Assembly (NCBI GenBank): GCA_008632985.1
Contig: QPGO01000021.1
Location: 1-64,000 of the forward strand
Direction of reading: 5' to 3'
From: Psammoneis japonica
Taxonomy: Eukaryota
DNA: 64,000 nt
Position numbers and translations under genes: made by a program. This document shows positions 18,573 to 58,790 of the stretch, piece by piece. The notes under the pieces were generated by a model that did no database searches, was not told where the DNA came from, and saw only the letters and a list, made by a program, of their open reading frames with translations. Numbering within the stretch: position 1 is the stretch's first letter; each line of letters starts with the position of its first letter.

Positions 18573-21500
18573 TCAAGTCAGCTCAAATCCTGCTCCCGAT
18601 TCAACGGCATCCAGCAGCTTCTTCCTGAGCAGTTGTTTGTCTTTGTAGTTGGGAAGTTTCAGTAAGTTCATGCACGTGGCACTGGTGGGAAGTGGCGTGA
18701 CCTTGGACAGGGCTTCCATGTCATAATTATGCATTTCAAACAACTCCTCTCCTAAATGCAGTTGCTGTATGCAAGGTAGTGGCTCCAATGCTTTGAATCC
18801 GAGTAGCGGTTGACGTGAACAAGACGTCATGAAGCGAAGGAACTTTCTTTGCTGGTCGGGTGTCATTTCTTCTACAACCTCCCAGAACCATTGAATAATC
18901 GGCTGGGAAGGATGATAGCCGCCAGAGTAGCGCATGACGGCCTTCATGCCGCGGACATCGATACCGCGTACAGTGTCGTCACCTGAAATAAGCTTCTGTA
19001 ACTCGTTGGAAGAAAACAATCGCAGCCACGAAGCAGGGATCAAATCACGGAACCCTTTCAGGAAGGCCTTGGTTTGCGCTGCGCCTTCCACGTTGAGTCG
19101 CTGGTGAGCAACAAGATGTACATACTGAATCACGTTCTGTTTTGTCACGTGCATTGAACTACCGCCAGGGATAAGCTCCGTCGTCGCCGTTTCCCTGCTA
19201 CCATTCGGCCCTGTCGTCGCTTTTGTCAATTCAAATGTCAGACCAAGGCCGTCGATTTCGGAAGCGCTGAGATTCCGCAACTTGATTAGATTGTTGTAGT
19301 ACTCTAAATCAAAGTTCTTCAAATCGTCGAGTGTGTTACGCTTCCCTAATAACTGATTCAAAAAGGGCAAACAGAACTGTGGCTCCACTAAGATGGATTC
19401 GTAAACAGCTTTCCCAAGCACTCGGCCGAGGAACTCATAATGAGACAAATCATAAGACGCAGACGAGTTCACCGAAAGGGTTTGAAGTGGTGTGACGGAG
19501 AAGAGCCGAGGCGCACCTCCAGATGTTCGGTCGGTATTCTCGCCAGGATCGAAGGCTTCCTTGATCAGATCATCCAAGAACTCCTTAAACACCCCACCGC
19601 CATCGATTCCAGCTTCTGTTGCACCATGTTGGTTGATAAAGGTGACTTGCACTTTCCTCCTCAACTTGTTTCCCAGTTCATTCAATTGTTCCATGGAGTC
19701 CTTATACAAGGCATCCCGACGGATTTCGACTCGCTCTCGTCCACCAAAGTTGATATTTTCGTTCTCCTCGTCACCTCTTGCCATCATCATCAAGGCACGA
19801 CGAAACTCGGTTTCTTCGTCTTGAGTTGTAGCCTTGTCGACAGAAAGCAGAGAACTAAACATTTTCACGCGACGTTCAAACGGAAGTGCCTGTGGAATAC
19901 ATGTAAGGATTCGGGCCATTTTAGGGTCACGAAAAATTTCTGCCAAAGCATCACTCTGTGCGTCAGTAGGAGATGGCCCCTCGTCATCCCCGTCGCTCTC
20001 ATCTACATCCATGGACGCAACGCTTCCATCGTCATTATCATCTGGAACACCAGCTTGACGAAGCGTAACTAGCCCGTCTCCTTCACGACTAATGAGACTA
20101 GGGAACCACCAAACCGACTCATCGCAAAAGGTGGGTGCATGACGAACTAGTCGACACCAACGTTCGTACAATGAATTCCAAAGCTTTGTGCCCGACAACA
20201 AGAGTCGCCCACGGTAGAACTTCAATCGATCATCCATATTTTCAAACGCCACACGGTCTACTTGCACATCTGCGGCAAGAACAGGTCGAGTCCAGAAGAC
20301 ATCATAAAGGGCGCTGCCAAGGCGAGCAATGACGTCCTCCGCAAGAATGACTCGCTTTTTGTGTGAGTCGGATGCGGCAGCAGTATAATACAGAAGGAAT
20401 TCTTCGTCGTGAAGCACCAGCAAGTGATGCGCAAAAAAATCACAAAAGACTGCCATACCCGCGGTGATAAGGAGCTGTCTGTCTTCCTCACCAGTCATCC
20501 ACTCGACAAGCGACTGCCACAATCCCTCCAGAATGCGCAACCCACGATGAAATGCAATCTGCGTCAAAAAAGGTGATTTTGATGCCCGTAGTCCGGTGGT
20601 ACACTGCAGCAGAGAAAACAACAACTTGACATAGGTCTCCTTTGCGTCGTAATTGCTGCTGCTGCTATTTCGACCAAAAATAATATCCCCCCACTCGATC
20701 CAAATATCGGCATTCCCCAATTGCGTGGCCAGATTCGCAAGCTGTTCCTTGTTGGATGCGGTTTCCATACTCGATAAGACTTGTTTTCGTGACTTGCAGG
20801 TCACATCTTGATACAAGCGATCCAATTTTGGAACGGTTTGCAAGTCCCGTCGCGTGAGCGTGCTCGAACGGTGTCTGTGACGAGTCTTCTTGGTTTGATC
20901 CGGTTTGGATGCATCTTGCATTTCGACATCCTCCTCTTCTTCCTCTTCATCGTCTTCCTCGGTATCCAAACGATCGTTTTCGTACGGTGACGACGACAAG
21001 GCTGCATTCTTGAGCAAGAGCTCTTGCACGTTTTCTCCTCGCACAACAAGAGACACAAGCGTGGTCAAATCAGGACGCTTGGACAAAACCAAGTCCACCA
21101 AAGACAAGTACATGTTGGGACTCAATTCATCGCGATTACCAGTGTTCCACATGTCAAGAGCATTCTGTAAAACAAGGCTTTCTCGTCCCCGGATTGCCTT
21201 GTGAATCGTTTCCTCGACACGAGGCAGGCTGGTGATTTCTTCAACAGTTCCAGTCAGGGCCTTTACAAGATACGGCAGCAATTCACGTTGATACGCCTCT
21301 AAGCTCTTGTCTTTTGCAGCTGGAAACAAAGCATCTGCCACATTGTCAAGCCCCTCCTTTATACCAAGGCTGGATCTTGCGCAAAACATGGTGCTGGACA
21401 ACAAGGCCATGACGGCCGTCTTGCAGTGATCTGTTCTGTTGAAAGCAGCAGCCGTCTGGCAAGACCAATACCAAAGAGTAGCTGCGGTTGCATCGTCTGC

Positions 21501-22091
21501 ATTTCTAGAATTCGATAGCCATTCTCGACAGCAATTCACGAGAGAAATAAAAGAATCCAATTCTAACTTTCCGTTTGTATTCTGAAGCATGTACACCAAC
21601 AGAGGCAATATGGTTGAAGTGGACGACTTGTTGGGACGCAGTTCTGACAGTGTTGTTTCGAAGATTTTCCTCTGAGAATAGGAAAATAGACCTCCCGTAC
21701 CGCCTTTGCTGTTGTTTTTGCTGCTTTCGTGATTATAATAGTCAGACAACACGGAAGAAACCGCGACTTTCAAATATGGCGAGAGTGGGGTCGATAGTCG
21801 CAGAGAAACCACCGTTTCGGTTATTTCAGAGTTTGCCAGCTGCTCTGCTAGACGCTTTCGTGCTTGTCGACCGCGAAACACACTCTGAATCGTCTTGGCA
21901 GAGGCATTTTGCAATTGAACTTGTCGTCGTTCATTTCGCTGAATTCTCGCTTCTTCCAACACGGATGACTTGTTGCTGTTTGCTGCTGCTGTTGTTGCTG
22001 CTGCTGTGGAAGTTTTTCGTCGTTGACGGCGATGGCGTCCACCTGTACTCAAATCAATGGTACGACGCGATCGATGGCTTCCATCGAACAT
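18573..22091 (-). CDS. HECT E3 ubiquitin ligase, UBE3B/UBE3C-like
   Basis: 1172 aa ORF with N-terminal IQ motif (IQSVFRGRQAR) and HECT motifs EAGIDGGGVFKEF, FLGRVLGKA, LPTSATCMNLLKLP (catalytic Cys) and GAGFELT end. Confidence 0.95.
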   Translation of the reverse strand: MFDGSHRSRRTIDLSTGGRHRRQRRKTSTAAATTAAANSNKSSVLEEARIQRNERRQVQLQNASAKTIQSVFRGRQARKRLAEQLANSEITETVVSLRLSTPLSPYLKVAVSSVLSDYYNHESSKNNSKGGTGGLFSYSQRKIFETTLSELRPNKSSTSTILPLLVYMLQNTNGKLELDSFISLVNCCREWLSNSRNADDATAATLWYWSCQTAAAFNRTDHCKTAVMALLSSTMFCARSSLGIKEGLDNVADALFPAAKDKSLEAYQRELLPYLVKALTGTVEEITSLPRVEETIHKAIRGRESLVLQNALDMWNTGNRDELSPNMYLSLVDLVLSKRPDLTTLVSLVVRGENVQELLLKNAALSSSPYENDRLDTEEDDEEEEEEDVEMQDASKPDQTKKTRHRHRSSTLTRRDLQTVPKLDRLYQDVTCKSRKQVLSSMETASNKEQLANLATQLGNADIWIEWGDIIFGRNSSSSNYDAKETYVKLLFSLLQCTTGLRASKSPFLTQIAFHRGLRILEGLWQSLVEWMTGEEDRQLLITAGMAVFCDFFAHHLLVLHDEEFLLYYTAAASDSHKKRVILAEDVIARLGSALYDVFWTRPVLAADVQVDRVAFENMDDRLKFYRGRLLLSGTKLWNSLYERWCRLVRHAPTFCDESVWWFPSLISREGDGLVTLRQAGVPDDNDDGSVASMDVDESDGDDEGPSPTDAQSDALAEIFRDPKMARILTCIPQALPFERRVKMFSSLLSVDKATTQDEETEFRRALMMMARGDEENENINFGGRERVEIRRDALYKDSMEQLNELGNKLRRKVQVTFINQHGATEAGIDGGGVFKEFLDDLIKEAFDPGENTDRTSGGAPRLFSVTPLQTLSVNSSASYDLSHYEFLGRVLGKAVYESILVEPQFCLPFLNQLLGKRNTLDDLKNFDLEYYNNLIKLRNLSASEIDGLGLTFELTKATTGPNGSRETATTELIPGGSSMHVTKQNVIQYVHLVAHQRLNVEGAAQTKAFLKGFRDLIPASWLRLFSSNELQKLISGDDTVRGIDVRGMKAVMRYSGGYHPSQPIIQWFWEVVEEMTPDQQRKFLRFMTSCSRQPLLGFKALEPLPCIQQLHLGEELFEMHNYDMEALSKVTPLPTSATCMNLLKLPNYKDKQLLRKKLLDAVESGAGFELT

Positions 22092-22389
22092 GGTAAACTA
22101 ACGTTGGAAGAAGTGGCAACAGGACGCTTTGCTTTCTTCGTTTTCTTTCGCTCGTGGTGCCTTCGTTGTGTGCGTGTTCGTGTGTTTTGTGTGTTGTGAA
22201 CTGGCATCGAAACACGAAAACGAAAGAACCGTTGCTTCAATAACGTCGAAAAGAGCTCGAACTACTCTTGATAGTCACGACTCCGTTGGTCAATGAACTT
22301 AGAGCTCGATTGTTGATTCTGTCATTGAACAATCCCCGAGCTTTTCGTTTAGGCAAGTGGAGATAGATGGCTAAGCCACTAGAGCAGTG

Positions 22390-27181: not shown

Positions 27182-29470
<2,289 letters not shown>

Positions 29471-34854: not shown

Positions 34855-36589
34855 ATGTCCTGGTCTTCTTCCGTACCACTTACAGACCTCCCAGTTGGGA
34901 GTGCCATTCACTCACCACTCACCAGCGCTTTCTCCAACGATGAATGCTCTGGGGCGATAGTCATTGATCCCATGTCCCTTCCAAATTCTCTTCAAGGATC
35001 CAACATTGGCGCCACTCTGGAGCATTTTAGTTACTGTGGTTTCGGGCTTTTTCATGGAGTATATTTTTATCTCGATGGGATTTCGGGAGGCCTCCGTGAT
35101 GGGTGATTTTCCCGTCGATGTGGGCGTTCTAGAAACATGCGCTGATCCTGCTGTGGAAGATTGTCCGCTCCGGTGAAGAATAACAACGAGAGGGTATGGG
35201 TGGCGGCGCCAGAGGCAACGTACTTTATCCTGATCGGTGGAAATGGTACTTTTGGAGAAGAACAAGGACAGATCGGTGTGGATATGGGAAATTTTGTTTT
35301 GGAACTCTCGGTGAGTTTGCTAGTGTTGATTTTTGCGGCTTACTGTATATCTGCATCCTCGTTGCGTGCTATTTTGCCTTATCCGCTTGGTGACCACTCA
35401 ATCACTGAACACATCAACACGTGGCCAATAATTGTCCTTGTCTCTACTCACAGGCTTTTGAAGTGGCTTCCAACGACCAATGTGAAAATCCCACCAACAT
35501 TTCAATTCCCAGTATCACAAGGGGCTCCGCTGAGTTTGCCTTTCCCAATGACAGCCTTTGCTACAGCACGGGCAATTTCAACAAGCGAGGTGCATGGTAT
35601 TCGTTGCAAGGAAACGCTAAGATTATCCAGATTTCGCTTGAGGGGGGCATCCTTTGACGCAGTCACCAGTGTGTAACACATGTCAAGTGCGTTCCTGCCC
35701 ACCGCCACGCCTTGTGGATGGTTTGTACACGTATGCCGCCCTTGCGGGTATTCCTTACACTGTTGTTGTGGCTGGGACGGACGAAAAGCAATGGGGCGAT
35801 TTCATCTTGGATATTCGTGTTGTAGATCCGCCGGTCCACAATTTTTGTGCGAGTGCCTCCTCGTTGACACGCTTCATTCCGTTTTGACTGGAGCCACCAC
35901 GTATGCCTTTGAAGAAACTCGAGGGAATGCTTGTTTTACAATTACCAAGGGTCCTGGTGTCTGGTACTCCCTTAGGTGCCAATCAAACCCTGCAGGCAAA
36001 TCTTGATGCCGAATATCCATACGAAGAATCTGCCACCCTTGCGGTTCAACGGGTGCGAGTTCCCAGAGCTCTCTTGTCCGGAATTCACGGTCGCGATGAG
36101 TGATAACAAGACCCGAGGCAGGAAGAATCACATATTACCCCGGGGTGTCCAGTACAGGGCAGTAACCGTTTCAGTGACTACCAACTCATTGTGCGATAAG
36201 AAGGAGATCCGTTGCAACCAACATTTCCTCCAGTCACCACGTCAGCTCCCGTTGCCACAGCCGCTTCTCCAAGTGCGTTTCCTGCTGTCCTTCCCAGTGC
36301 TTCCAGTGACCTGTCACTTGTTTTTCGACATTGGACTCTTGATGCGCCCGCATTGTCAAGCGCTCCATCTCTCAACAAGTGCACCATCGCTGGCACCCTC
36401 GTTGAGTGCGGCACCGTCATCAATGCCGCCATCTGATGTGCCCACGTAAGATCCAACGCGATCCCCCCTAAACCGACGGATTCAACTCGCACGGACAACA
36501 TTTTCAGCAGAAGTGGCGCTGCCGATGCAACAAAACTCATCAGCAGTGTTGGAAGTTTGGTGATCGGGACGCTGGTAATGTGCTTTTGA
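34855..36589 (+). pseudogene. Fragmented cell-surface protein gene with repeated Cys-containing extracellular modules, Pro/Ser/Thr stalk and hydrophobic tail
   Basis: Recurrent N-D/F-x-C-x-x-A and G-x-W/Y-Y-x-L modules (NDECSGA, NDQCENP, HNFCASA; GAWYSL, GVWYSL), PTFPP/APSL stalk, tail LISSVGSLVIGTLVMCF. Broken across frames; introns not resolved. Confidence 0.45.
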
Positions 36590-36800: not shown

Positions 36801-37149
36801 GTGGGAATAGAGAGCGAAGTGACAGAGCTCCATTTCGCGACGAGCGCGCGCGTGCGCGCTAACGCGCGTTCTGTTGTTCTTGATTTGAGATTTCGCGGAT
36901 TGTGATACCAAAAGTGGATCAGAGAGCTTCGCATAAAGTTGACATCATCCCATCAACATCAATCACTCGCGCATCACTGAAGTTTATTCTTCCATCATTG
37001 TAAGAAGGTATCAGGAGTCTCTGTTCGTTGTATGAAAGTATCATTTGGAGTGCTTTTGTCGACTGGATTCATTCGAAAGTTAAACCCAAACAGAAAACTC
37101 GGAGGATTGGATTCTTGAATTTCGGCTTCTCATCGGACGGGTTCGCATC

Positions 37150-40100
37150 ATGGGCGGTGTTTGTTCTGGTCCCGTGGGCTTCGAAATCACGGAGAGAGAA
37201 AGGAAACAATGCACTGTTTTGGAAACAGCACGAGGAGTGAAGCCTCTCTTGGAACTAGCCAAGCTCGGGGTTCCGTTTCGGGCCGCGGAGGTAGTCGTTT
37301 ATGTCCGACCAGCTTCCAAAAAATTCGCGGGAGATCCAACAGCAGTCACTCCAGACCAGCTGAAACGAATCTTGCGAGCCCTTTTCCTTACACCGGGGAC
37401 AGTGCAGCTCATGTCGCGAAGAGGCTTTGCCAGGTATCCCAGCTGCCGCTATGCGCTCCGCAAGCTTAGGCTGGTTGCTTACGATGAGACTCGCGACTTG
37501 ATGATTTTGGCTGCTGGACCAGTGGGACAAAGCGTGCCCCCACATATCACCATGTATCAAACACCGTTTCCTTCTCGTTTCCTTTATCCTTTGGCTCAAG
37601 CTTTAGCGGATGCATTTGTTGGAGTGCCGCCATGGGCCGTTCCAGTCCAAATCAAGCCTGGAAGTCTGGCTTTGCCTGCTTCGACCGCGGCTTCGCAGGA
37701 ACAAGCGCTTGGAAAGGACGGAGGATTTAGCTCTTGCTTCGCAGCACATACTGTGGCCACTGTCATCTTGCAGTCTCCAAAACCAGAACGAAAGCTTTCT
37801 TCTCGAAAGGCACTGAATGTTCGCCAGATCATCTCGAGCCTAGTCGCTAACCAGCAACCTCAGAACTTGCCGTGGTCTAAGGGACACTCGTACGTTCTCG
37901 ACGTAGGTGCTTTGGTGACTGGGTTGTTGGCTCAAATCAGGCCTATATCGAAAATAGCGCTTTGTGATTCTCTGATTCTTGGTGCGTTGGACTGTCTTGC
38001 TTTCAACCTCGAGTTCCGAAAGCTGAGAATGCACAATTTGAAGCTGGATTTCCAGGTGAATCTTGCTAGAATATTTCTCTACAATGTCACTCTGAGAGAC
38101 ATTGACCTTGCTGGCACCAGTCTTCATGGTATGGGCCGAGATTTGGGACGGGCTTTGTCAATGAATATTCAACCACTCGTGTCAAACCTTGATCTCTCTG
38201 GATGTAAGCTCGGTGATGTGGACTGGAATGGACTGGTCGTAGGTTTAGCTCGCCTTTGGTGTGGCGGTTCAGCAACTTTGCAAGCGCTATCTGTTGCGAA
38301 CAACAAGGATGTTAAAGCTTTATCTTGGGGTGCTTTCTGGGATCTCTTGGTGGACCCGTCGACGTTCGAGATGTGGCCAAGCTCTCACCGCCGCCACCCA
38401 ACCTTTGCTTTCTTCAGCACCTGGATGTCACCGAAACGACAGCCGCAGGATTCAGTTTGGCTCGACTCATTAGAAAGCTGGAGGGTCTGCGCTCCTTACG
38501 CCTTGGTGGCGGTACCTCAAAGTTTGAAGATGTGGACATTGTCTTGCAGGCCGTTGCTAAGTCGGATGCACCCTTGGAAACATTCTATGGAAAATGCTTA
38601 CAGCTCACAACGAGCAAAAATGCTCTTGCAGATGCACTCCACCACCACAGTGGTACTCTGAAACAGGTGGAGCTCGAAGATTTCTCCGGAAATGCATTAC
38701 GATTGATCTGCTTGTGGCCCTCACGTGTTCCGAAGGTTTCTTTGGAATTCAAAGGCGATCTCAAAAAGGCCCAGGCCTGTTCGACCTCAATGACGAGTTT
38801 ATCACATGATCATTTCTCTCCAGGTACAATCATCTTGCGCGGTAAAAATCATCGGAGCTTCGTTCGAGATGTGCTGTCAACACTTGCTTCTCGAGCGACC
38901 GGGTTGATATCTTTGTATATTCACGGCGTGCGTTATGCAGATATCGCCCGTGAGGGCTCGGAAACTCAGCTAGCCACGTGTGGGCTAAAGGTTCTACATG
39001 TTACGTGGCCTCCTTCCGAACGAAAGGATCATGGTCGCAGTCGTCGAGGCTCGTCGTGTGATTGGAAGTTACGTCAGCAATTTTGGTCAGTTCTTGCGCT
39101 TTCAAAGACGCTGGAAGAGATCTGGCTCCCGAATCAACTGGAGGATTGCACTTGTGAGAATCACGAGGACGAAGTTGCCATGATTGGTAGATTTCTAAAG
39201 ACGAACCGTTCTGTCCGGCGCATCAATTTTGACAGCGATGCCCTCACATTAAATGTCGAATCTGTAAAGATTTTGCGATCCGCTTTTTACGGCAACAAGA
39301 AAGTTGTTTCTATGGTATATCCAGTTGAGGCCAAGGCGCGCACAATGGCGAAGGCTAGACAGACTACTCTAGTCTGTACTCGTGAAGTTGCTGATGCAAA
39401 GAGGAGCATCAAACAGATCTTTAAAAGTCATTACGACAAATACGACCGCAACTGGAGAGCCAAGCCCAATCGGTACGTTTGTAAAGGCGTCGAAACAGAT
39501 GTCGAGAATGCTTTCGTGCTCTCGCTGACTCTTCCATGTCGCATTTTTGTCCCCGTCTAGGTTGAAGGTGCCCCATGTGGAAAGGATCAGGACCGCAAAG
39601 CGAAAGATTGGGAAGACGAATCGAGACGCTACTAAAATTGGAGGGCTTCTGCAACAAGTAAAAGTCTGTGTTCAGAAGAATAACGATCCGTTCCGTCTGT
39701 CGCTTTTCGAGAAGAAACAGTCCAAACTTGCGCGTCGTGAGACACAATTAACTAAAATGGCTGTGAAGCAAAACCAGGTGATGGGAAAGCTAGTTACAAG
39801 GCTCCACCGCGCCAAAATTCGTGGAAGAAAGAAAAGATCTGGCAAGGAGCACGTGCCTCGGAGTTACTATTACAAAGACAGGCATAATTGGCCCGGGAGA
39901 AGGTTCGAAAGGGCTGAAAGCTCTCACTACCGGCGTTGGAACGACCCATACAATGCCCGCTTTACGTATGCTTGGCTTTGGTATCATGACCGCGACCGGG
40001 AGGGTGAGCAGTTTCCAACCCAGGCAACTCCAGAAATCGAGGTTTCAGAAGAGGGCGATGAGCCCGAGATTTTTGTTTGTGGGGATGAAGAACCCGCAGA

Positions 40101-42003
40101 GGACGTCCCCGTCGGTGCTGCGTGGCCTCCTTACGTGATCGATATTGAGGATATTGATCTCGCATGTTCACCAAACCTGGTGGAAAGCCGAGATCCAGGT
40201 ATCTTCCCAGACTTATCGTCCACAGTGGACGACCCCTGGGCCCCTATTGATGAATTAGTCACTGCCAATGATCCCTCTTCCGACAAACTTTTCTCTGATG
40301 CATACCTTTCACAGCTTCACATGGAGGCTGCAGAGCTAGGCCTTGATGTTCTGGCTGACGTGCAGCCCATTCTAGATGTAGCTGCATCACTGAACGACAA
40401 AGTCGACGATATCGCAATCACTTTGGGGGTCGATCCATCTGATGTTGTTGCGTCGGTGCCGGTCCAGAGTTTTGATGCCACTGAGCTACTAAGTGTACTT
40501 CCGGAAGTCGGGGCCTATGACCTTGAAGAGGCTGACGATGCTGTCGAGATGTATGCTGGAGCAGGACCAAGGGATCTGGACGACGGTGGTCCATTTTTTG
40601 GTGATGGTAGCATTGCGGTTGAAGCAGGCGCCCGACGTCGGGCTAGAACTAGAAAGAACAACCGAGTGCAACGTCGGGTTCGATTATCTGCCTGTAGACG
40701 ACAGCGAGGATACAGGAGCTTGTCATTGACGCCAAACATCTTTGTTGAAGATTGCGCGAGTAGCGAATCAGAGGCGCCGTTTAGGCCTTGGCCAGACAAC
40801 ATCAGCGGTAGCTGGAAGGATGATGTTACAGCTGCTCAAATTGAAATAATCTCGCAGAGTGATGTATTGTCACTTCCTGAGATCTCATCACCGGTACAGG
40901 TCCTAGAGTGGTCACATATGCACAATGTAGCGGATGAAGCACAATCACAAATCGACGTTGCTCTTGTCACTCAGTGCAGTGTTGACAGACTCGATAATCT
41001 GCGCGATCAGCTGGCCGCGTGGAATGGAAAGGCGTCAGTGGCGGTTTACGTGAAGAATTCTGAGTTGTCTTCAAAGATTGATGCTAAGCTCTTGTCACTT
41101 GTCAACGAAGCTCAGCAGCGTGCGCTTCAGTTGGGCAGTGATTCATCAGGATGGGACGTGGCTTTGTCCATTGTAGAGGCACACGGCGAAGATGAGCCGT
41201 ACCCGATCAATTACTTGCGAAATGTCGCACTTCTGCAGGCTCGCAGTCTGTTTGTGTCGAAGGGATACGTCTTGGAAAAGACCGCGGTGCTACTCGTGGA
41301 CGTCGATTTTCGTCCAAGTTGGAACCTTCATGAAGCTTTGCACTGCGATACTGCTGCCGACGAAATCCTGCAGAAGCGCAGAGTCGTGGTTTGTCCCGCT
41401 TTTGAGGATTCAACTAGCGATAACTTGCCTCGAAACATTCCTGAATTGCGAGAAGATCTTGACAATGGCTCAGCAAGCGGTTTCCACCTCTCGAAGTTTC
41501 CCCAAGGCCACAGCCCGACAGATTTCGAGGCGTTCTGGTCGGCTTCGTCATTGCAGGCGCCGTCAACACAAGAGTTGTGGAGCAGACTCTATCCGGTGTC
41601 GTACCAGAAGCTCTTCGAGCCATACGTCGTTGTGCGGACCCCTGACGTGCCACTGTATGATGAGCGTTTTCAAGGATACGGATTGAATAAGGTGTCGCAC
41701 TTGGCTGCGATTGCCAGACAGAAGTGCAATGAGTTGTTCGTGTTGCCGGGGGTCTTTCTAGTTGCACCGTGCCACGAGCGGTCTCAATCATGGGCAAGCA
41801 TTTACGGTTCTGCTTCGGATGAAGCAAATTTCAACAAGCTGTATCTCAAGGGACTGTACCACAGTTTTTCGATCCGGTTGAGTGAAGGTAAAGCTCCCGT
41901 TGTGTCGTCGGCCACCAAGATCTGGCATGAGCAGCTACTGGAGGCAGCAGCTACAAAACCCATTTCTTCGGTAGCTTTTGAAACTCAACAATATTTGTCA
42001 TAG
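37150..42003 (+). CDS. Large protein: N-terminal MG..C motif, RNI-like leucine-rich repeats, C-terminal GT49 (LARGE/B4GAT1-like) glycosyltransferase domain
   Basis: LRRs (LRDIDLAGTSL, VSNLDLSGCKL, LQALSVANN). One frame break near 38390. GT-AG intron 39473-39560 joins in frame. GT49 motifs LVTQCSVDRL, YPINYLRNVA, LVDVDF, PAFE, GHSPTDF, FEPYVV and DERFQGYGLNK. Confidence 0.75.
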
Positions 42004-42099
42004 ATAGAATTGTGTTCAATGGCGAAAGGTTTATAATAATTCATATGCATTTTGATTTTATGATCTTAGGATGATTCGTTGCTCTTTGTCGCCAACTCG

Positions 42100-44570
42100 T
42101 CACTTCTCCCAACAAAAGCCCTCTAAGACCACCAGTAAATCATCACCATGAATACCGTCACTGTCGCACGAATGCTCAGAATGAAACCGGAAGACGATCT
42201 GTGGGCGGACATGGAATTCGAAGTGCGAGACGTTGTCCACAAATTCAAACAGCTCTTGCCGCGAAGGAAGAAGACGCGGGTTGGCAACGATTTCGTGAAA
42301 ATCCTTCAGAAAAGAATCCTTCATGCATGTGGTAAACCATTCAGGAGCACTCTCCTCGTAGAGTGGAGGAGCCATTGCGGTCATTAAGAGAAGTGGACTC
42401 ACATCAATGCCGCAAAAGCCACGGTCAATCACAAGTTGTGCAGCATTGAATCCCACTTCGTCTGAGCCACAAACGCCAAGTCGCCACTTCCGTGACGGCC
42501 ACGGAGACCGTTTGTCTCTGTGCTGACCTGTGCATCATGCACGGTTGCAGCTTTTAGGTTGTCCGTACAAAGTAGAAGAACTCACATGCGTGCAGTCACA
42601 ACGTGCCCGAATTCTTCTACGCGTTGTCTTTCAGAAGTCATCGTTGTCGTCATCTTCCCTGGTCATCCTCCTCAGAGCCTTTGGTGTGAAAGAGCTCCAC
42701 ATGCACGGGCCACAGCATCACTGAGAGAAAGCGTGGGCGTGAGAGGACGATGCGAGCATTGAGACAACCGTCACCGATCATTGCCAGTCATGGGGCCAAC
42801 GAGTGGCAGTCACTGAGAGTGCTGTTGCCAAATGCGGTGGCAGCAGCTTCTTGATCTAGAGACAAGCAAATGGCTTTCCAGAGTGCTGGATTGGTTGTCC
42901 ACACCTTCGAAACAGATGAGGAGGATGACAAATCATTGCAGGCAGGAGAGACACCAGGAAAACACATGCCATGAGATGTGCTCAAATGTGTTCTTCCCCC
43001 AGCAAAAAGCCCCTCCAATGCTGCCAACAACTTGTCACCATTGACAGGTCCAAAGCACAAATGAGCACAAGCATTTCCAAAGAAAAAAGTGATTTGAGGA
43101 CCTGGAACTCCAACTCCGAGACATGGGCCACAAATTCCATCAGTTCTTGCCATGTAAAGAAAAGTGCTCAAACCCAATTTTTAAGTGCTGTTGCACCTTT
43201 GCCCAGCAACACCGGCACCGACAAACCCACACTTCCAGTGCAATCAACTGGGAGCATGACACAGAAGCTCATGAAATTAGCCGGTCGTGGCACCACTTTG
43301 CAGCAACGCCCTCCGGAGACAACTGGTTGTGAAATGAAACCACACAAGAATTGGGCCATTGCTTTCTTTTGGAATGAATGCAAAGTGTTCACACAACAAC
43401 AGCAAAGAACAATTGTGTTCAGAAGAAGATGCAAAAGCACCTCAAGATCTGGGAGAAGAACCTTGCTTGTCTGCACCAAAGAGGGACTGGATCACACACT
43501 TGCAGGCACGGGAACAAAAGCAAACAGTTTGCTGCATGGAGCAGCAATCTTGGCAAGCTGGCAAATGGAAGAAGGGATGTTCAGGACTTGCAAGTGTACA
43601 TTGGGGAGCCTTGATGATGTCACAATGCTGAGTCTTGCATGGAAATGCCAATCCGCCATGCATCAGATGGACGATGTCAGGTGATGCCAATGGTTCATCC
43701 AAGTGAACACTCACAAGAACCATGACATGCACAAAACTTTCACTGAATGAAGTGTGAAGAACTCAGTTGGCCAATGAGAGCAGAAGAAATCATTGGGAAC
43801 TGATGGCTGTGGATGGAAGTGGTGCACATGTTGACAAAGTGGTTGTTGGAGCACATTTCTGAAGCACACAGAATTTGTGCTGGATCCTGTGTAGAAAATG
43901 CTCTGAATTTGCAAAAAATTGCCAAAAAGATCAACAAGCATGTGTGAGCCACAAGGTTTTGATGCCGGTCATTTTCCACTCAAAAGCATTAAAAAGGGCA
44001 ACAGCATCAGCATGAGAGCATGTGCAGAAACACATGTGGGGGCTGCCAGTGGGGGCTGACATCAAGGAAGTCTTGTTGTGTGAGAAGTGGCAGACATCTG
44101 ACAAGACAGCCAACATCTCACAAAAAAGTCCTTCATGCATGTGGCAAACCACGGAGGAAGATTCTCCCCCATGATGACAAGGGGTTGTCAGAGTCATGAG
44201 GAGAAGAGGACTCACTGCAACTCTGGTGCAGCCAAGCTCAAGTGAAAGTCCAGTGGCATTGTGCCCCACTTTGCCACAGCCAATCACCAAGAAGTCTCTA
44301 CTTGCATCACAGCTGTGGCCACACATGTTGCATTCTGGGGCAATGCAAGCATCACACACGTTCACAAAATCCAGTGGATTGCCTTTTTGGCGGAATTGCA
44401 CTTGCATGCATGCATTGGCAAAGAATTCTTTTGTCACATGTCTCGCTGGTGTCAGATGTGCATTGCATCCAAACTGAAGGTCATCATCACTGTCACCATC
44501 ATTTTTGTCATCAAGTCCAAGGTCTGGAGGAACACTTGCCCAAACATTCAGGGCTTTGGGGGGTTTCATC
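42100..44570 (-). pseudogene. Three degraded paralogous fragments of an unknown protein family
   Basis: GFNAAQL..VSPLLLMT (about 42390-42456) matches GHNATGL..VSPLLLMT (about 44195-44270). PQIVF..GDDLLVVLEG (42100-42210) matches PQITF..GDKLLAALEG (42990-43100). DNA ccttcatgcatgtgg-y-aaacca is shared. Confidence 0.6.
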
Positions 44571-51118: not shown

Positions 51119-51387
51119 CCCACCTTGTGCAGTGCAACAAGGCAAATGACCCACATTTGACCGTTGGGTCATGCAAACCGTTTGAGTTCAAATTTGAACG
51201 TGCTTGCGCGAACTTGGCGAGCAAACAACGGTTTTTTCTGCTCTTTTCTCGTTTGCTTCACTCATTCTTCCGAAGAGCAACAAAGAGCAAGAAGCCGCTA
51301 GACAGTTTTTAACGCTGTCGACGCGGCGCAGGATGCCTCCGCTGTGGCTCCCTGTTGTTCGCAGGAAGAACCTTTGGTGAGTCCATC

Positions 51388-53778
51388 ATGGACGTGCAAC
51401 AGCAGCAAAACGCAGGACAAGGGGCCCAGAATGCCCAAAATGCCAACGACCCTGCTCCACCGCAAAGAGGAGCTGCAGCAGCCGCCGCGGCAGCCCAAAA
51501 CGCTCCGCCACCTCCTCCTCCACAAGTCCTGGTGCCTCCGGTGGCACCGCAAGCAGCAGGAGCCGTCATGCCGCCACCGCCACCGGGTGCACAAGCCGCA
51601 CCGGTGGCGCCGCCGGTCATTGCGACGCACCGGGATTTTTACCTCACAGCCGCTAACGACCCACACCGGGGGGTGCACGACGAGTCGATGCTAGACTTCG
51701 CGGTTCCGGTTCAGGGACCTTCGAGATACAACCCCGGAGTGCTCCATGGGCGAGTTGCAGCGGCGTCAAGTCACGATCAGCCGATGGCCGTCATCGTGCA
51801 CTGCCGAGAGGACGGCGCAGCGGATGAAGGACAGATCCAAGTCCTGCACCGCGTCACCACTTATCCGACGACCGTGGTTGGACCTGCCGAACCTTGGGAC
51901 GGTGAGACGCACGCAATGGCGGGTGACCTAACCCGTGGACAGTTTGCCCTGGTCGAATTCGGGGGCGACTCATTCAACTTGGCACAGCAGGGGACTAGGG
52001 TGCCAACCCACGCCGCACTCCTGGAGCATGTCACCAACAATGCGGAAGGCCTGCATCCGCATCTGGCTGAGGATGCACCAAACTCGGAGGTCGTACGGAC
52101 ACGACATGCAATGCACGTGCCATTTGAGTTCGTGCCGCTCTTGTTGGCACACCCTTTGCATCCCAAACAAGCCCACCAGCGCGTGCACGGCGCCGCTGCG
52201 GCAGCTAACAAGGTGGCTGCCATCCGACCACTGCTCGACTTCTTGCGCGTCGCCTGCTGTGCCACTGCCAACAACCAAGTGGCATCTGTTGTGGCGCAAC
52301 CTTGGCCTGCAATGACACGTCCCCCCAACGAAGCCCTCATTCAATTTTTTGATGCCAAGGTGGAGCGGGACATCCCCGGGAGACTGGGTTGGGCACCACC
52401 CACCGCGCAGCACTTCCAGCCGGTTGCACAGGCCATTGAAGAGCTCACCACTGAACAACGACAACTCCGACTTGATGCTACCGCACGTCAACAAGCGGCT
52501 GCCCGGGGCAAGGTTCCCAATGAGTTCTGGGGACCTTTTGGTGTCACCAAGCTTGTGAATTGGTGCCACGCCCTCAACGAGACAGCACTGCCGCCTGTGT
52601 GGGCCGCCCTTGCCGCAGCGCCTAAGACAGGCCGCCTGGCAGTCGTCCAAAATGCAATTGACGAGCAACGCCAGGCAATGGCCGTTCATTTTGACGCACC
52701 AGTCACGGTTGGCCTTGTCACCAAGCTCGCACAGCTGGATTTTGCTGGTCACAATCAAGACGAGCCAACCCAAGGCATCACTCCATTCCAGTTTGGGATT
52801 GCTGCGCCAGACAGTGCCGAGCAGATCGCCTGTCGCAAGGCCATGTACATGCACATTCATGGCGGCGCTGCGGCCCCGTCCCTCCAAGACACGCAGATCC
52901 TGGAAGCACCAGACAAGGCGCTCGTGGCGACGACAATGCAAGAATCTACCCTAGACGCCCGACCCGTTCGCATTCAAGAATTGGTTCCACTCAAACCAAC
53001 ACTCACCGGCTGTCATGATGCTGCAGGTCACGGCGCAGGCGGCGTCCTCCTGCCAACCAGTGCCACAGCACCCAGAGCAGCCACTCTCCGTTTCGGCAAT
53101 TGCAGACGCTGTCAACAGAGAGATGCGGGTCCTGTAGTGTGGCGACTGCCCTTTCCCAAAAGTGTCAGCAGTCAACTCTCCACTTTCTCCAACCCGCGCG
53201 GTCCCATCACCAACACAGACCTGGAACTTGCCGGCAGTGTCATTCAGTCCTTCGGCGCCGCCGACTGTTTTGACATCCGTGAACGCACCAGTCTTTCACG
53301 CACCGACAATTCAGGCACCATGTGCTGGCAACGTAAAGGTGCCACCACTGCCGTCAAACCCGCCTCCCGGTTGCTTCGACACCAATCCTACCACCAACGC
53401 TACCATCGCTACTTGGGGTTGCATGACTGCCCACCTGGACACCTCAACACTGCCGCTGACGATGCCTCACAACTGCAGTCTTTGTCCAACCATGAATTTT
53501 TGCGTCACTTTAATTTGTGCCATCCGCAGAAACTCTCCTGGCGTCTCTGGATGCCTCCACCAGAACTGAGTTCATACGTGATCTCAATGCTGCTCAACAC
53601 GCAGTCCAGCATGGCGTTGCCTCTTCCAGAGCCTCCGCCGCCAACACCCATTGGGACAAATGGTGAGAGTTCTGCTCCTCTTTGGCCATCGACCCACTCC
53701 TCAAAGACATTGACGACCCTGTTGTCTTCCTCCAAGTCTTCTTGCACCGATGCCGCACAGGAGTCCTCGCGCCGCTGA
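51388..53778 (+). pseudogene. Gag-like region fused in frame to a DIRS-type RNase H domain (RT apparently deleted)
   Basis: Pro/Ala/Gln-rich gag-like N-terminus, then RNase H motifs HDAAGHGAGGV, ITNTDLELAG, RTDN and PGHLNTAADDAS. No RT YxDD-like motif between them. Confidence 0.75.
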
Positions 53779-54664
53779 AGATGCCATGCGTTCGGTTGGC
53801 CAAACGTTTGCTGCAATGGGGTCCCCGGATCCACGCCACACATCCCAAGGCACAATGGATTTCCGCCTCACCTGGCAAGTCCGTTTTTACAAGAAGCAGG
53901 ATCCACCCCCAGACCACGTAAAACCGGTCCCAATTGCAGTGCTGCAATGGATTATGACCGCCGCAGCCCTCAGCAATGCCCCGGGCACACAAGCCATTGC
54001 TGAAATGATTGTACTTGCCTTTTTCTTCCTGTTGCGGCCTGGCGAGTACACCGCAACACCATCAGACACCACCCCCTTTCGTCTCGCCGATGTCCGGCTT
54101 GTGTCTGGTGGTGCTCACCTTGATGCCATGCAAGTTCCACTTGCACACCTTGACACAGCAAACTTTGCCACTCTCACCTTTGCCACCCAGAAAAATGGAG
54201 TGTGAGGCAAAGTTCTAGGGCTTGGTCTTTCCGGTCACCCCCACCTGTGCCCGGTTCAAGCCCTCATCCGCCGTGTCCAACACTTGCGCACCCACGGTGC
54301 GCTCCCTGACACACCCCTTGGTGTTTGCTTTCAAAACAACACCTGGCGTCGTGTGTCCCCGGCTGACATCACCAGCATGCTGCGCAATGCTGTCACTGCT
54401 CTCGGTCCGGCTAATCTTGGCTTCACCACCCGAGATGTTGCCACTCGGTGTCTTCGTGCCGCCGGAGCAATGGCCCTCCTTTGTGCCCGCGTCGACACCG
54501 ATCTCATTCGGCTCTTGGGCCGCTGGCGATCCGACGAAATGTTGCGACACCTGCACTTGCAAGCAGAACCAGTCATGCGCAACTTCGCTCGCGACATGCT
54601 CGCCGGTGGCGACTTCGTCCTCCACCCCAATGCTGACGTCCCTCAAAATCCTCAAGACGCCTGA
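53580..54664 (+). pseudogene. Tyrosine recombinase of the retroelement, inactivated
   Basis: FFFLLRPGEY (Arg I), TQKNG, RCLRAAGA and GRWRSDEMLRHL with the expected catalytic Tyr as His (CAC 54548-54550). In-frame TGA at 54203 and a frameshift near 53775. Confidence 0.85.
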
Positions 54665-55230: not shown

Positions 55231-55736
55231 GACGTCTACGGTGTATGTATCTCGAAATCGGCGAGTTTAGTCGTAGGAATCATGGAGAGGCTGCCTTTAC
55301 ACGACCGGCCGCCGCGCTGTTGAAATTTGGATCACTTTTTAAAAATAGGCCACACAATCGTATTTGAATAAATGATATCTTGTGCGGTAACGGATTCTAG
55401 ATCACGTAAAATTCATATGTGTTTAATCAGAATTTAATATAAATTGATACTTATCGATACCTTCTTTAAATTAAAACATATTCATATATGAAAAGTAATA
55501 TTTATCGTCTAATAACGGATTGTAAATCCCGTATAATTGTGTTATACATATTAGGTACCATATAAGAAGATACAATTCCCACGTGAATTTTGGAAATCAT
55601 GAATCTGCGAGCGAAGAGCGAGCGAAGGCACCAGCGAGCAGTGTGCGTGCACACTCACAACGGTATTTTGGGGGGAGACGAGTTGTACGGTAAGAGGGGT
55701 TTGTAAGAGGACTACATACAACATTGATTAGGCAAG

Positions 55737-58700
55737 ATGAGACGCATCTGCTGCCGATCATCAAACGATGAAGGCTTGAAGAATCATCATTCGGAGAGAA
55801 GATCTTGTCTCCAAAAGTGGGACTTTTACACCGAGCGCTACTTTAAGCGACCCATTCTCAAAGGACTTATCTGGTTAGCAAGTGAAGCAGCACGTTGTCC
55901 CGGCTTGACAATCGCCATCTCGATTACCGTGGCCGTCACTGTTGTCTGTGCTGGGTTTGCTACAAACTTTAGGGTGGAAACGAATCGTGATGTTCTCTGG
56001 ACGCCGATAAATTCCTACTCCGAGAAGCACTGGCAGTGGCTGAATTCGGATGATGCAGGCTTTCCCGCCCCAGACCGGTATGTTGATTCGATGGTACACA
56101 TGTCGGGAAAAAACGTCCTTACAAGACAAGGTGTCGATTGCCTCTTTGACGTCTTGGAAGTGTTGCAAAGTTCAGCGGGTTACGAAGACGCTTGTTCCCG
56201 GTCAGAAAACGGAGAGTGTCGAATATTCTCAGCCACAGCCTTCTTCAATCATGATCGAGCTCAAATGGAAGCCCTTTTGGCTGAAGACACGGATGATGAT
56301 TTGACGCTAAGGCGCCTAATGTCAGCTTTAGAGTACCCAAACGAGGAGCCGGTGTTTCGAGACATTGTCTTCGGAACATCTCTGCCAGAGCTACCAAAGA
56401 ATACTTCTTCTGCTTCGCAAGAAGATCTGCTCTTGACCAGCGCAAAGGCTCTCATGGTTCGAATCGCCGAACCTCAAGCGGATATAACCAATGCGGGTGA
56501 GTTTGAGCTTGAATCCATGAAGAATCTAGACCGCGTCAACGACCGCTGGAAGAGGGCTGGGTCGGAGTGTGCCGTCAGCTTTACAACGAAACGATCCGTG
56601 GACGATGAAATGCAACGTGGGATCAAGAAGGACATACCGTACATGGCGCTGGCCTTTATCATTATGGGCTGCTTTTGTGGTCTCTACTTGTCCAACTTTA
56701 GAGACCTTGTGAAAAGCCAGAGCCTTGTGGGCTTGGGCGCCGTGGTAACCATTCTCGTATCCGTCGGAACCGGATACGGGCTACTGTTTCTTATTGGTGT
56801 CCCGTTCACCAACATGACCCAAGCTTTTCCGTATGTGATGGTGGGGATTGGGCTGGATGATACATTCATCCTTACAGGCGCGTTTCATCGATCGGATTCT
56901 TCCAAACCCTTTGTTGATCGTGTGGTTGAAGTTATGAAGGAAGTCGGTGTCAGTATTACAGCGTCTACCCTGACTACCGTGACAGCCTTTTCTCTCGGGT
57001 GCACGTCAAGCATTCCAGCCATTCGCTGGTTCAGTTATTACGCCGCCCCGACCGTGGCCATTGATTTCATCTACCAGATTACCTTTTTCATTGCGATTTT
57101 GGCATACGATGATCGAAGACAGAAAGCCGGTCGCTACGATGTTCTTATCTGTGTCAAGGCCAAGAACAAGTCTCCCGAGCACGAGTCGCAGAGTGCTCCA
57201 GTAGTCCACCAAGAGAACAAGCCAAACTTCATCACCAGGCTAATGGCATGGTACTCTGGAATTCTTCTCAAGCCCATCTCGAAGGTTGTCGTGCTCCTTG
57301 TGTTTTCGGCAATGTTGGCTCTCGGAATACTCGGTGCCATAAATCAGAGGCAAGAATTTGATTTCCGAGAGCTCGTTCCTGCGGACTCTTATCTGAGAAC
57401 CCACTTTACGAATCTCGATGCCTACACGCTGCCCGAGACGGTTTCTCAGTTTCCCATCGGCGTGTATTTTCGTGGCGTTGACCAAGGATCAGAAGAAGTT
57501 CAGCAACAGATGCTTGACTTTGTAGATGATCTGGTGGCGCTCCCGTACATATCCAACCCACCGGAACTCTTCTGGTTGCGAGATGCCAAGAGATTGCAAC
57601 AGGAGGTAGCCTTTGCGAACTACACATTTGAAGAAGGGGTTGATCTTTTATTGAATATTGAACCCGCCAAGACACTCTACGGTCCTCAGATCGTGCGTGA
57701 TGAGTTCGGCAACGTCACCGCATCACGAACCTATGTAAGGTTCGATAAGTCATCCTTGTTCGATGTGAAGAACCAGATTAATTCGCTAGAGGCGGCACGT
57801 GAGGTATCACGATCACATCCTGTAAATCAGGGAAGTGATGATTGGAAATTCTTTGCTTTTGGCGAATTGTTTATGGTATGGGAGACGTATTCTGTGTTGG
57901 TCGAAGAGATCATGTTCACTGTTGCGCTTGGGCTGGTTTCGGTGTTTTCAATCTCTTTACTTTTTATCCCTCACCCAATCGGCGCGCTTCTATTGACTCC
58001 CGTTGTCGGAGCCATCTACATTGAAGTCATGGCGGTACTGTACGCCGCTGGGATTTATATCAATGGTATTTCAACAATTGGACTGATTATGAGTGTTGGT
58101 CTTGTTGTTGACTACAATATGCATGTCGTGCTCACCTACTACGAAATCAAGGATGCCACGACTCGCAACGATCGTGTTTACAAGTGCCTTACTACAATGG
58201 GTACATCGATCCTCTTGGGAGGCTTCACGACGTTCATCGGTGTCCTTCCTCTTCTCCTTACCCAGTCGGAAATCGCAAGAACTTTCTTCTTCACTTTTTT
58301 GGCAATTCCTTTGCTGGGTGTGGCTCACGGACTGATGTTGGTACCGGTCATTTTGTCATTGTTTGGTCCTGTTGGTCAACCGGAGAATACGCTTGCAGGT
58401 TATGACGACGAGAAGGATGTCTCCACTGACGAGCACTCAACCGATGCGGAAATCTCAGGAAATTCATCGATATCAGACGGCTCGGAATCATCCGTACAAG
58501 CCTACGATTTTTCTTCGGTGACGGACATCGAAGTTGAAACGGACATTAACGGAAGCGTCACAGTTTTCCATTCCAGACAGAGTCGAAACAAGGGAGCCCC
58601 CCAGGTTCGAGCTATTGTTGACACTGAAGTGCTCAGCCAACGATCATATCCTGTTGTCCATAATTCTTCTTACGACTTTTCTTCCATAGAGCTGCCAATG

Positions 58701-58790
58701 GAAGGAGACGGAAGCGTTGCGGTTGTTCATACCGGCACTGGGAAGAAGCAGCCTTCCTTTCCCCGAAATTCTACCCTGTCAGAGTTTTGA
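55737..58790 (+). CDS. Patched/NPC1-family (RND, sterol-sensing domain) membrane protein
   Basis: 1017 aa ORF with 1+5+1+5 TM layout, GIGLDDTF and GLVVDYNMH GxxxD motifs, and two large luminal loops with several N-x-S/T sites. Confidence 0.92.
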   Translation: MRRICCRSSNDEGLKNHHSERRSCLQKWDFYTERYFKRPILKGLIWLASEAARCPGLTIAISITVAVTVVCAGFATNFRVETNRDVLWTPINSYSEKHWQWLNSDDAGFPAPDRYVDSMVHMSGKNVLTRQGVDCLFDVLEVLQSSAGYEDACSRSENGECRIFSATAFFNHDRAQMEALLAEDTDDDLTLRRLMSALEYPNEEPVFRDIVFGTSLPELPKNTSSASQEDLLLTSAKALMVRIAEPQADITNAGEFELESMKNLDRVNDRWKRAGSECAVSFTTKRSVDDEMQRGIKKDIPYMALAFIIMGCFCGLYLSNFRDLVKSQSLVGLGAVVTILVSVGTGYGLLFLIGVPFTNMTQAFPYVMVGIGLDDTFILTGAFHRSDSSKPFVDRVVEVMKEVGVSITASTLTTVTAFSLGCTSSIPAIRWFSYYAAPTVAIDFIYQITFFIAILAYDDRRQKAGRYDVLICVKAKNKSPEHESQSAPVVHQENKPNFITRLMAWYSGILLKPISKVVVLLVFSAMLALGILGAINQRQEFDFRELVPADSYLRTHFTNLDAYTLPETVSQFPIGVYFRGVDQGSEEVQQQMLDFVDDLVALPYISNPPELFWLRDAKRLQQEVAFANYTFEEGVDLLLNIEPAKTLYGPQIVRDEFGNVTASRTYVRFDKSSLFDVKNQINSLEAAREVSRSHPVNQGSDDWKFFAFGELFMVWETYSVLVEEIMFTVALGLVSVFSISLLFIPHPIGALLLTPVVGAIYIEVMAVLYAAGIYINGISTIGLIMSVGLVVDYNMHVVLTYYEIKDATTRNDRVYKCLTTMGTSILLGGFTTFIGVLPLLLTQSEIARTFFFTFLAIPLLGVAHGLMLVPVILSLFGPVGQPENTLAGYDDEKDVSTDEHSTDAEISGNSSISDGSESSVQAYDFSSVTDIEVETDINGSVTVFHSRQSRNKGAPQVRAIVDTEVLSQRSYPVVHNSSYDFSSIELPMEGDGSVAVVHTGTGKKQPSFPRNSTLSEF

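Follow-up and report, generated by a model that had tools for sequence, protein, structure and literature searches.

A GT49 glycosyltransferase domain joined to a predicted CARMIL-like scaffold at a Psammoneis japonica locus

Glycosyltransferases of family GT49 act in the Golgi lumen, and in animals they build the laminin-binding glycan of dystroglycan. LARGE and B4GAT1, which both belong to this family, are type II membrane enzymes of the Golgi, and to our knowledge all characterised GT49 enzymes are luminal. Here we describe a gene of Psammoneis japonica in which a GT49 domain ends a long protein of a different build. The gene occupies 37150-42003 of the forward strand in a 64,000-nucleotide stretch of DNA (contig QPGO01000021.1 of assembly GCA_008632985.1, positions 1 to 64,000), which is called the window below. 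Once a base (N) is inserted at a break in the reading frame and an intron is removed, it encodes a protein of 1588 codons in an architecture that is conserved in diatoms and brown algae. We consider it reasonably probable that this protein is a peripheral GT49 transferase of the cytosolic face.

The nearest named proteins outside the family described here are metazoan LARGE proteins, which combine GT8 with GT49 (PF01501 and PF13896) and show 33-35 % identity. The likeness to LARGE1 and LARGE2 concerns the GT49 domain, which matches PF13896, aligns over about 287 residues at E 1e-25 and keeps both the DxD motif and the equivalent of His708. In contrast to LARGE, the window protein has no GT8 xylosyltransferase domain (no PF01501 or other family at E<=1) and no type II membrane anchor or stem (hydropathy maximum 1.75), and its GT49 domain ends a 1200-residue scaffold of cytosolic type that stands behind an N-acylation motif. 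A conceptual parallel is AgtA of the Dictyostelium Skp1 pathway, in which a GT-A domain of Golgi type works in the cytosol next to a repeat domain that binds the protein substrate; a comparable arrangement is proposed here. AgtA belongs to another GT family and carries another type of repeat, and the two are likened here in concept, not by sequence.

For the rest of the protein the closest described system is CARMIL, a linker of capping protein, Arp2/3 and myosin-I. The accessible text of PMC5491179 gives its layout as PH, LRR (leucine-rich repeat) and helical dimerisation domains, behind which comes a disordered half that contains binding motifs and a basic segment for membrane binding; it describes CARMIL as apparently absent from plants and fungi and does not mention stramenopiles. 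The window protein resembles CARMIL in a predicted PH domain, a rigid linker or N-cap and a ribonuclease-inhibitor (RNI)-type LRR in collinear order (fold of 4k17, where the LRR has roughly 16 repeats; Z 15.7 and 16.5). It also resembles CARMIL in what comes after the LRR, a helical segment and then a long, probably disordered stretch that includes a basic patch. It differs in that it ends in an enzyme, whereas CARMIL ends in capping-protein-binding and proline-rich regions; moreover, no CARMIL or PH Pfam family is found in it, and the family profile run against PDB sequences finds LARGE1 only, apart from a chance-level flagellin match at E 0.28. The second half of the LRR solenoid also resembles ribonuclease inhibitor, NLRP3, NOD2 and RanGAP. 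Unlike NLR proteins, the window protein lacks a NACHT/NB-ARC or other NLR domain (Pfam, E<=1), and the first half of the solenoid matches well only with the PH domain included, a combination specific to CARMIL.

We found no published description of a PH-LRR-GT49 architecture in the literature searched, a search with subscription journals outside its scope. On GT49 in diatoms or brown algae, only one CAZyme survey and its preprint were found; the accessible text of this brown-algal survey calls the presence of GT49 'unexpected' and does not discuss architecture (PMC11468063). Among the matches listed, there was no algal paper for PF13896 or Glyco_transf_49, no paper linking CARMIL with stramenopiles, diatoms or glycosyltransferases, and none naming GT49 for a cytoplasmic or protist enzyme. 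GT49 and the CARMIL fold are themselves known; what is new here is a GT49 enzyme in a conserved, apparently cytosolic, CARMIL-like context. If this is true, a glycosylation reaction of the cytosolic face has so far gone unrecognised in two ecologically dominant algal groups, the CARMIL-type PH and LRR module extends past the lineages where it has been described, and the gene is a concrete, testable candidate.

Gene model, frame break and intron

Three long open reading frames (ORFs) follow one another on the + strand, at 37084-38661, 38316-39560 and 39529-42003. The first contains the ATG at 37150, with an in-frame stop upstream of it; the second continues the coding sequence from near 38386, and the third takes it up after a GT..AG stretch. 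Inserting an N behind 38386 and deleting the 88 nt of this stretch keeps the reading frame open over all 1588 codons. When three diatom orthologues were aligned to the window with tblastn, they fell into three collinear blocks that match this gene model, across the intron too.

The contigs of three sequencing runs (X1, X2 and X3), which come from the same sample and study and are each recorded as 'DNA?', were compared with 37000-42200. Run X3 has no contig on this interval. The X1 contig, at a depth of about 59, has an extra A behind 38386, and the X2 contig has an extra C behind 38385; either base restores the frame, the codon being Gln with A and Pro with C. X1 is possibly the very sample behind the window and hence not independent, and X2 is from the same sample. 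Because the contigs of both locus-bearing runs add one letter there, the frame break at 38386 is a defect of the window assembly and the gene is intact. A frameshift near 38390 had been noticed in a preliminary description of this DNA made from the sequence alone; it does exist in the window sequence and is removed by the contigs of the two runs. For the assembly this means that it carries single-base indels that break real genes.

The base missing at 38385-38387 is polymorphic between these two runs of one sample. A short intron in place of the indel was considered, as GT..AG pairs that would give introns of 35-50 nt are present by eye at 38350-38407, and it was rejected. The indel is the simpler explanation because both runs carry the extra base and because of the orthologue consensus WPxxPPPPPNL.

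The intron, which the preliminary description had also proposed, is skipped in X2. A 2576-nt contig of this run starts at 39374, in the end of the scaffold part, joins 39471 to 39560 so that 88 nt with GT..AG ends are left out, and ends at 42037, 34 nt past the stop. The depth of X2 is zero at 42046-42200, while X1 keeps the intron and continues past there. We infer that X2 is cDNA; its record is silent on library type, and an intron-less DNA allele is the alternative. The X2 contigs span 37000-42037, gap-free over 37000-37877, and one of them extends beyond 37000. The breaks between them sit at paired 61-nt contigs one letter apart (for example 37848-37908 and 39343-39403), which we read as heterozygous sites and which fit a heterozygous diploid.

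Two further exons were considered and rejected. Open frames at about 36200-36436 resembled the N-termini of orthologues by eye and could have formed an upstream exon; tblastn with the three diatom orthologues finds nothing upstream of 37177 at E<=0.1, and the X2 contig is collinear through 37000-37877, contrary to this idea. The other was an exon coding for a DTC domain, a signal peptide or an anchor; the N-terminal regions of P0051, P0003, P0068 and P0072 served as tblastn queries against the window (best E 0.27). No DTC-like sequence was found with P0051 and P0003, and nothing similar to the signal or anchor parts of P0068 and P0072 (best E 0.36).

Architecture of the protein and its relatives

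The C-terminal domain matches PF13896 (Glyco_transf_49) at E 1.3e-36; the score is 127 bits, where 27 is the cut-off. This is the sole Pfam family in the three translated pieces at E<=1, and it is also matched by all 15 aligned relatives. Searched against PDB sequences, the last 387 residues find LARGE1 only (7zvj and 7ui6). LARGE1 is described in the accessible text of PMC9746966 as an inverting GT49 enzyme of GT-A fold with a DID motif at Asp563-x-Asp565 and His708 as an additional Mn2+ ligand. A DVD in the window protein aligns onto the DID motif, and a His falls on His708 by a numbering offset that we derived from the DID position. Both Asp residues and the His are each retained in 14 of the 15 full-length relatives, the exception being P0017, whose GT49 part matches the family HMM over positions 6-134 only. 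From these conserved LARGE1 metal ligands we draw that the domain is probably active as a Mn2+-dependent, inverting UDP-sugar transferase. By analogy with the family its donor is most likely UDP-GlcA, a sugar nucleotide that is made in the cytosol. The complete GT49 domain with a DxD motif that the preliminary description had read from the translation is thus present.

The assignment of the N-terminal scaffold rests on predicted structures, because the first 774 residues match no Pfam family at E<=1, and the 15 aligned relatives match no LRR, PH or CARMIL family at E<=10. Pfam LRR_6 does score above its cut-off in P0015 and P0082-P0085 and lies just under it in P0016 (23.3 bits against 23.4). 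AlphaFold2 models made with the family alignment are confident for residues 1-412 (pLDDT 85.8, pTM 0.87) and 414-774 (pLDDT 86.0, pTM 0.84). The first model has strands at 45-137 and a helix at 142-155, which together are PH-like, then helices at 180-234 and strand/helix units at 248-401. For this model Foldseek ranks five CARMIL chains at the top of the PDB, over 380-424 columns and with E from 3.7e-12 to 9.4e-9, namely 4k17 A-D (mouse CARMIL 1-668) and 9ec0 (a CARMIL dimer with capping protein). The sixth match drops to E 1.8e-3 and is followed by isolated PH/PTB domains and NLRP3 LRRs. VIA-align places model residues 26-411 on CARMIL 9-366 of 4k17_D (Z 15.7, root-mean-square deviation (rmsd) 4.6, 310 residues), and the next entry other than CARMIL reaches Z 11.7 with 157 residues aligned.

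The second model is less specific. It aligns with ribonuclease inhibitor (VIA-align Z 16.8, rmsd 4.9, 272 residues) and, tied with it, with CARMIL 331-648 (Z 16.5, 284 residues); NLRP3, NOD2 and RanGAP lie at Z about 14-16, and F-box LRRs are also near. Taken together, these models suggest that residues about 26-734 are collinear with the crystallised CARMIL fragment (PH, linker or N-cap, RNI-type LRR), and CARMIL alone appears to match the structure of the N-terminal 734 residues over their whole length. The likeness to CARMIL is one of fold, with homology not shown, because identity in the structural alignments is only 13-17 %. The RNI-like LRRs of the preliminary description are borne out as a fold, though not as a Pfam LRR family (E<=1), and they are not a free-standing RNI- or NLR-like sensor but part of a PH and LRR unit that matches CARMIL.

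Sequence searches with the scaffold return mainly the family itself. Against 1.84 billion representative proteins, HMMER with residues 1-412 gives 27 matches at E<=1e-3, 16 of them at E<=1e-10, and the stronger ones are long family members or fragments of such. P0034, P0038 and P0039 match weakly (E 7e-6 to 2.4e-4), over short stretches and several times over, and blastp with P0038 gives repeated matches over the LRR part alone. The ESM Atlas has no usable match for residues 1-245, nor for the linker half taken separately. A search for the capping-protein-interaction (CPI) motif with strict and loose regular expressions for its consensus gave 0 matches in the window protein and 15 homologues.

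Between scaffold and enzyme lies a region that, as the preliminary description had stated, is basic and then acidic. It starts with a long helix after the LRR (residues 313-348 of the 414-774 model). Around residues 751-900 there are as many as 18 Lys and Arg in a stretch of 50, and around residues 901-1100 Asp and Glu number 10-13 per 50 residues. The acidic part holds a short motif, MYAGAGPRDLDDGGP, whose first seven residues (MYAGAGP) are identical in 15 of 15 relatives and which is also found in six brown-algal sequences. An Arg-rich patch lies downstream of it.

At the other end, the protein starts with MGGVCSG, in agreement with the start that had been proposed. The pattern for N-myristoylation is Met-Gly with a small or uncharged residue at position 3, Ser or Thr at position 6 and no Pro at position 7, and a nearby Cys can take palmitate. 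MGGVCSG fits this pattern and has such a Cys. Eight further distinct homologue N-termini read MG-x-x-x-S/T, which makes nine distinct ones in all: P0002 (MGTSSS), P0013 (MGNKVT), P0021/P0059 (MGQILT), P0026 (MGSCTS), P0037 (MGCGPS), P0040 (MGGSWS) and the two brown-algal MGC starts, P0083 from Pylaiella (MGCMQS) and P0084 from Scytosiphon (MGCSQS). The count leaves out P0005, P0006, P0012, P0015, P0018, P0082 and P0085, whose N-terminus is missing or not comparable. In the homologues the MG motif is followed by a conserved acidic/basic stretch ending in Cys 12-20 residues downstream. As far as sequence can tell, the N-acylation motif is old and recurrent, not universal. The N-acylation signal predicted before is therefore upheld in that the motif is no chance occurrence, and has to be narrowed in that at least 12 relatives do without it.

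By hydropathy, the window protein has no signal peptide, membrane span or N-terminal hydrophobic stretch, and in this the preliminary description was right. The highest 19-residue Kyte-Doolittle mean is 1.75, in a segment that holds two Asp and lies within the modelled LRR N-cap helix. Full-length relatives have maxima of 1.39-1.84, mostly in the same helix.

The preliminary description had suggested looking for the same architecture in other stramenopiles, and full-length relatives occur in both diatoms and brown algae. When the GT49 part was searched against proteins of 1424-4065 aa, 17 matched, and 13 of these are collinear over their full length, with 1556-1798 aa and 49-54 % identity; named relatives include Pseudo-nitzschia arenysensis and Ditylum brightwellii. 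Brown algae (Cladosiphon, Scytosiphon, Pylaiella, Ectocarpus) share the build, with LRR_6 and GT49 in proteins of 1525-1836 aa. The LRR C-cap and GT49 also occur in a 1578-aa protein of the kinetoplastid Papus ankaliazontas, known from a transcriptome that may be contaminated. P0014, a 2911-aa Symbiodinium gene model named 'Large2', has reverse-transcriptase and RNase H domains in addition to GT49; it is probably a chimera with a retroelement.

Some members carry Deltex DTC domains at the N-terminus, before the PH-LRR-GT49 body: one in P0003 (E 2.2e-29), one in P0027 (E 1.1e-29) and two in P0051 (E 2.1e-60). DTC domains are ADP-ribose readers, and their fusion hints at cytosolic or nuclear targets in some lineages.

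We built a maximum-likelihood tree of 44 GT49 domains, after 15 near-copies or fragments were dropped from the 59 that spanned the profile; it is rooted at the midpoint only and has several long branches. The brown-algal proteins form one clade (100/100) and all diatom-type proteins another (99/99), the latter including three short forms, P0068, P0072 and P0075. The window protein pairs with P0013 (support 100/96). For P0068, a paralogous gene, an alternative isoform and a chimeric contig are all conceivable.

Cellular location and competing explanations

The reading that we favour takes the following form. The MG-x-x-x-S motif with its nearby Cys would be N-myristoylated and probably palmitoylated, and this lipid anchor, together with the adjacent CARMIL-like PH domain, would keep the protein at a membrane, on its cytosolic face. 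The RNI-type LRR, predicted to form one rigid unit with the PH domain as it does in CARMIL, is a likely docking surface for a protein partner or acceptor. The basic helical segment is perhaps a dimerisation element in place of the HD domain of CARMIL, and the long acidic, probably disordered region with its invariant motif and Arg-rich patch may tether the scaffold to the enzyme. The C-terminal GT49 domain would then transfer a sugar from a UDP-sugar, most likely UDP-GlcA judging from the family. The selection of substrates by the LRRs, as the preliminary description proposed, finds no support in these results, and for the role in signalling or defence that it had also floated, the presence of LRRs is the sole basis.

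Several observations weigh against this cytosolic reading. The short GT49 relatives P0068, P0072 and P0075 (39-51 % identity) have a signal peptide or N-terminal span, with hydropathy peaks of 2.25 at residue 17, 2.28 at residue 74 and 2.00 at residue 22 respectively, and P0068 sits deep among the Pseudo-nitzschia-type fused proteins in the tree. Because such close relatives carry a signal or anchor, the catalytic domain is evidently also workable in the secretory pathway. It seems to have moved between the cytosolic scaffold and that pathway, or else some genes may make both isoforms. Lipid anchoring is not a requirement of the whole family, because the relatives without the MG motif have longer N-terminal extensions instead (P0001, P0003, P0004, P0007-P0011, P0017, P0025, P0027 and P0028, also P0051; several are lysine-rich). 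The silence of Pfam on PH, LRR and CARMIL families counts here too, as does the basis of the GT49 assignment in sequence alignment. Topology was judged by hydropathy alone, and UDP-GlcA is proposed as the donor by family analogy. Expression is supported by X2 only, a run recorded as 'DNA?' whose cDNA status is inferred, and no RNA-labelled run was among the sequencing runs found for the source.

It is conceivable that, although the protein lacks a classical signal, its GT49 domain has its place of action in the secretory pathway, as LARGE and B4GAT1 do. A different first exon could yield a short signal-bearing isoform, or import could be unconventional, and the long form would then be a minor or regulatory product. 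The signal- or anchor-bearing short relatives, the place of P0068 next to Pseudo-nitzschia-type proteins inside the fused diatom clade and the luminal setting of characterised GT49 enzymes (for LARGE1, in the accessible text of PMC9746966) all point that way. We nevertheless regard this as unlikely for the present gene: nothing in the window resembles the signal or anchor parts of P0068 and P0072 (tblastn), X2 contigs span the whole long form, and diatoms and brown algae alike have kept the long architecture. An MG motif, an RNI-type LRR and DTC domains such as those fused in some members are established features of cytosolic or nuclear proteins. Alternatively, the protein may be primarily a cortical or cytoskeletal scaffold of CARMIL type, with GT49 as a non-catalytic sugar- or nucleotide-binding or regulatory module. 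Such a role would suit the whole-length structural match to CARMIL and an overall layout that echoes the one in the accessible text of PMC5491179, including a conserved short motif and a basic patch. It is quite unlikely, since 14 of 15 relatives retain the DxD motif and the His ligand alike, which argues for catalysis, and neither a CPI motif (by regular expressions) nor a CARMIL Pfam family was detected in the searches given above.

That the fusion is an artefact, either of two adjacent genes for scaffold and GT49 or of a pseudogene with a real frameshift, is highly improbable. The frame break is present in the window sequence itself and no run recorded as RNA was found, which would agree with such an artefact; on the other side, contigs of both runs carry the missing base, the ORF is continuous over 1588 codons, a single X2 contig from 39374 to 42037 joins the scaffold end, the splice and the GT49 part, and there are 13 full-length collinear relatives, some from transcriptomes marked complete. 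The fusion proposed in the preliminary description accordingly stands as one gene, and the outcome that it had named as fatal, a real frameshift in an unexpressed locus, is contradicted by the run contigs, subject to X2 being cDNA. The structure prediction that it had called for gave the confident PH and RNI-type LRR models, to which Pfam adds GT49.

Within the favoured cytosolic reading, a more far-reaching version can be formulated, which we put forward as a long shot. Ochrophytes may possess an undescribed nucleocytoplasmic glycosylation, in which cytosolic targets would dock on the CARMIL-like LRR and receive GlcA or a different sugar from a GT49 enzyme anchored by lipid and PH domain. Where DTC domains are present, the sugar might be placed on ADP-ribosylated proteins or on the pentose of ADP-ribose itself. 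This idea about the acceptor is prompted by the DTC domains of some members and echoes the chemistry of animal GT49 enzymes, which add GlcA to xylose on a ribitol-phosphate chain.

Mapped features and neighbouring loci

The features of the locus are listed in Table 1.

Table 1. Features of the GT49 locus, in window coordinates
Feature	Position	Strand	Evidence
Upstream ORF in the 5' leader, 28 codons and stop, frame different from main ORF	37032..37118	+	Within gap-free X2 contig
Start codon and N-acylation motif MGGVCSG (Gly2, Cys5, Ser6)	37150..37170	+	Translation
Predicted PH-like domain, residues about 26-160	37225..37629	+	AlphaFold2 model; aligned to CARMIL PH in 4k17
Predicted helical linker/N-cap from PH to LRR, residues about 161-245	37630..37884	+	AlphaFold2 helices 180-234; inside the CARMIL 9-366 alignment
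Predicted RNI-type LRR solenoid, part 1, up to the break	37885..38386	+	Strand/helix units 248-401; CARMIL, RanGAP and NLRP3 matches
Site of missing base (apparent frameshift)	38386..38387	+	A in X1, C in X2; ORF open with N
Predicted LRR solenoid, part 2, and C-cap, residues 414-734	38388..39350	+	AlphaFold2 pLDDT 86.0; VIA-align
Predicted long post-LRR helix, start of basic helical region	39324..39472	+	AlphaFold2 helix 313-348 of the piece
Intron, 88 nt, GT..AG	39473..39560	+	X2 contig; orthologue collinearity
Basic, probably helical region, to about residue 900	39561..39936	+	Lys+Arg up to 18/50; conserved across the alignment of 15 relatives
Acidic linker that has conserved islands and is probably disordered	39994..40572	+	Asp+Glu 10-13/50; no Pfam or PDB sequence match
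Invariant short motif MYAGAGPRDLDDGGP	40549..40593	+	MYAGAGP identical in 15/15 relatives
Arg-rich basic patch	40633..40686	+	ARRRARxRK in family consensus
GT49 catalytic domain (predicted)	40918..41955	+	PF13896; LARGE1 chains; envelope from family HMM
DxD motif (DVD)	41299..41307	+	Aligned with LARGE1 DID; kept in 14/15 relatives
His aligned with LARGE1 His708	41773..41775	+	Kept in 14/15 relatives
Stop codon (42001-42003) and short 3' end	42001..42037	+	X2 contig end at 42037

Elsewhere in the window, a frame of 821 codons at 51313-53775 (+) has no Pfam family at E<=0.001; the GC content of the window is highest in this part (0.58 at 52001-54000). Neighbouring ORFs encode an FG-GAP domain (501-2498, -), a HECT ubiquitin-ligase domain (18576-22097, -), a Patched/sterol-sensing domain (55728-58787, +) and a kinesin-motor domain (59180-60883, -). 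These four are ordinary eukaryotic genes with no evident tie to the GT49 gene. An Hsp70 gene at 27185-29060 (-) is split over two overlapping frames, one of which covers positions 52-315 of the HSP70 profile and the other positions 312-598. This split may reflect a second single-base assembly error like that at 38386, or a short intron.

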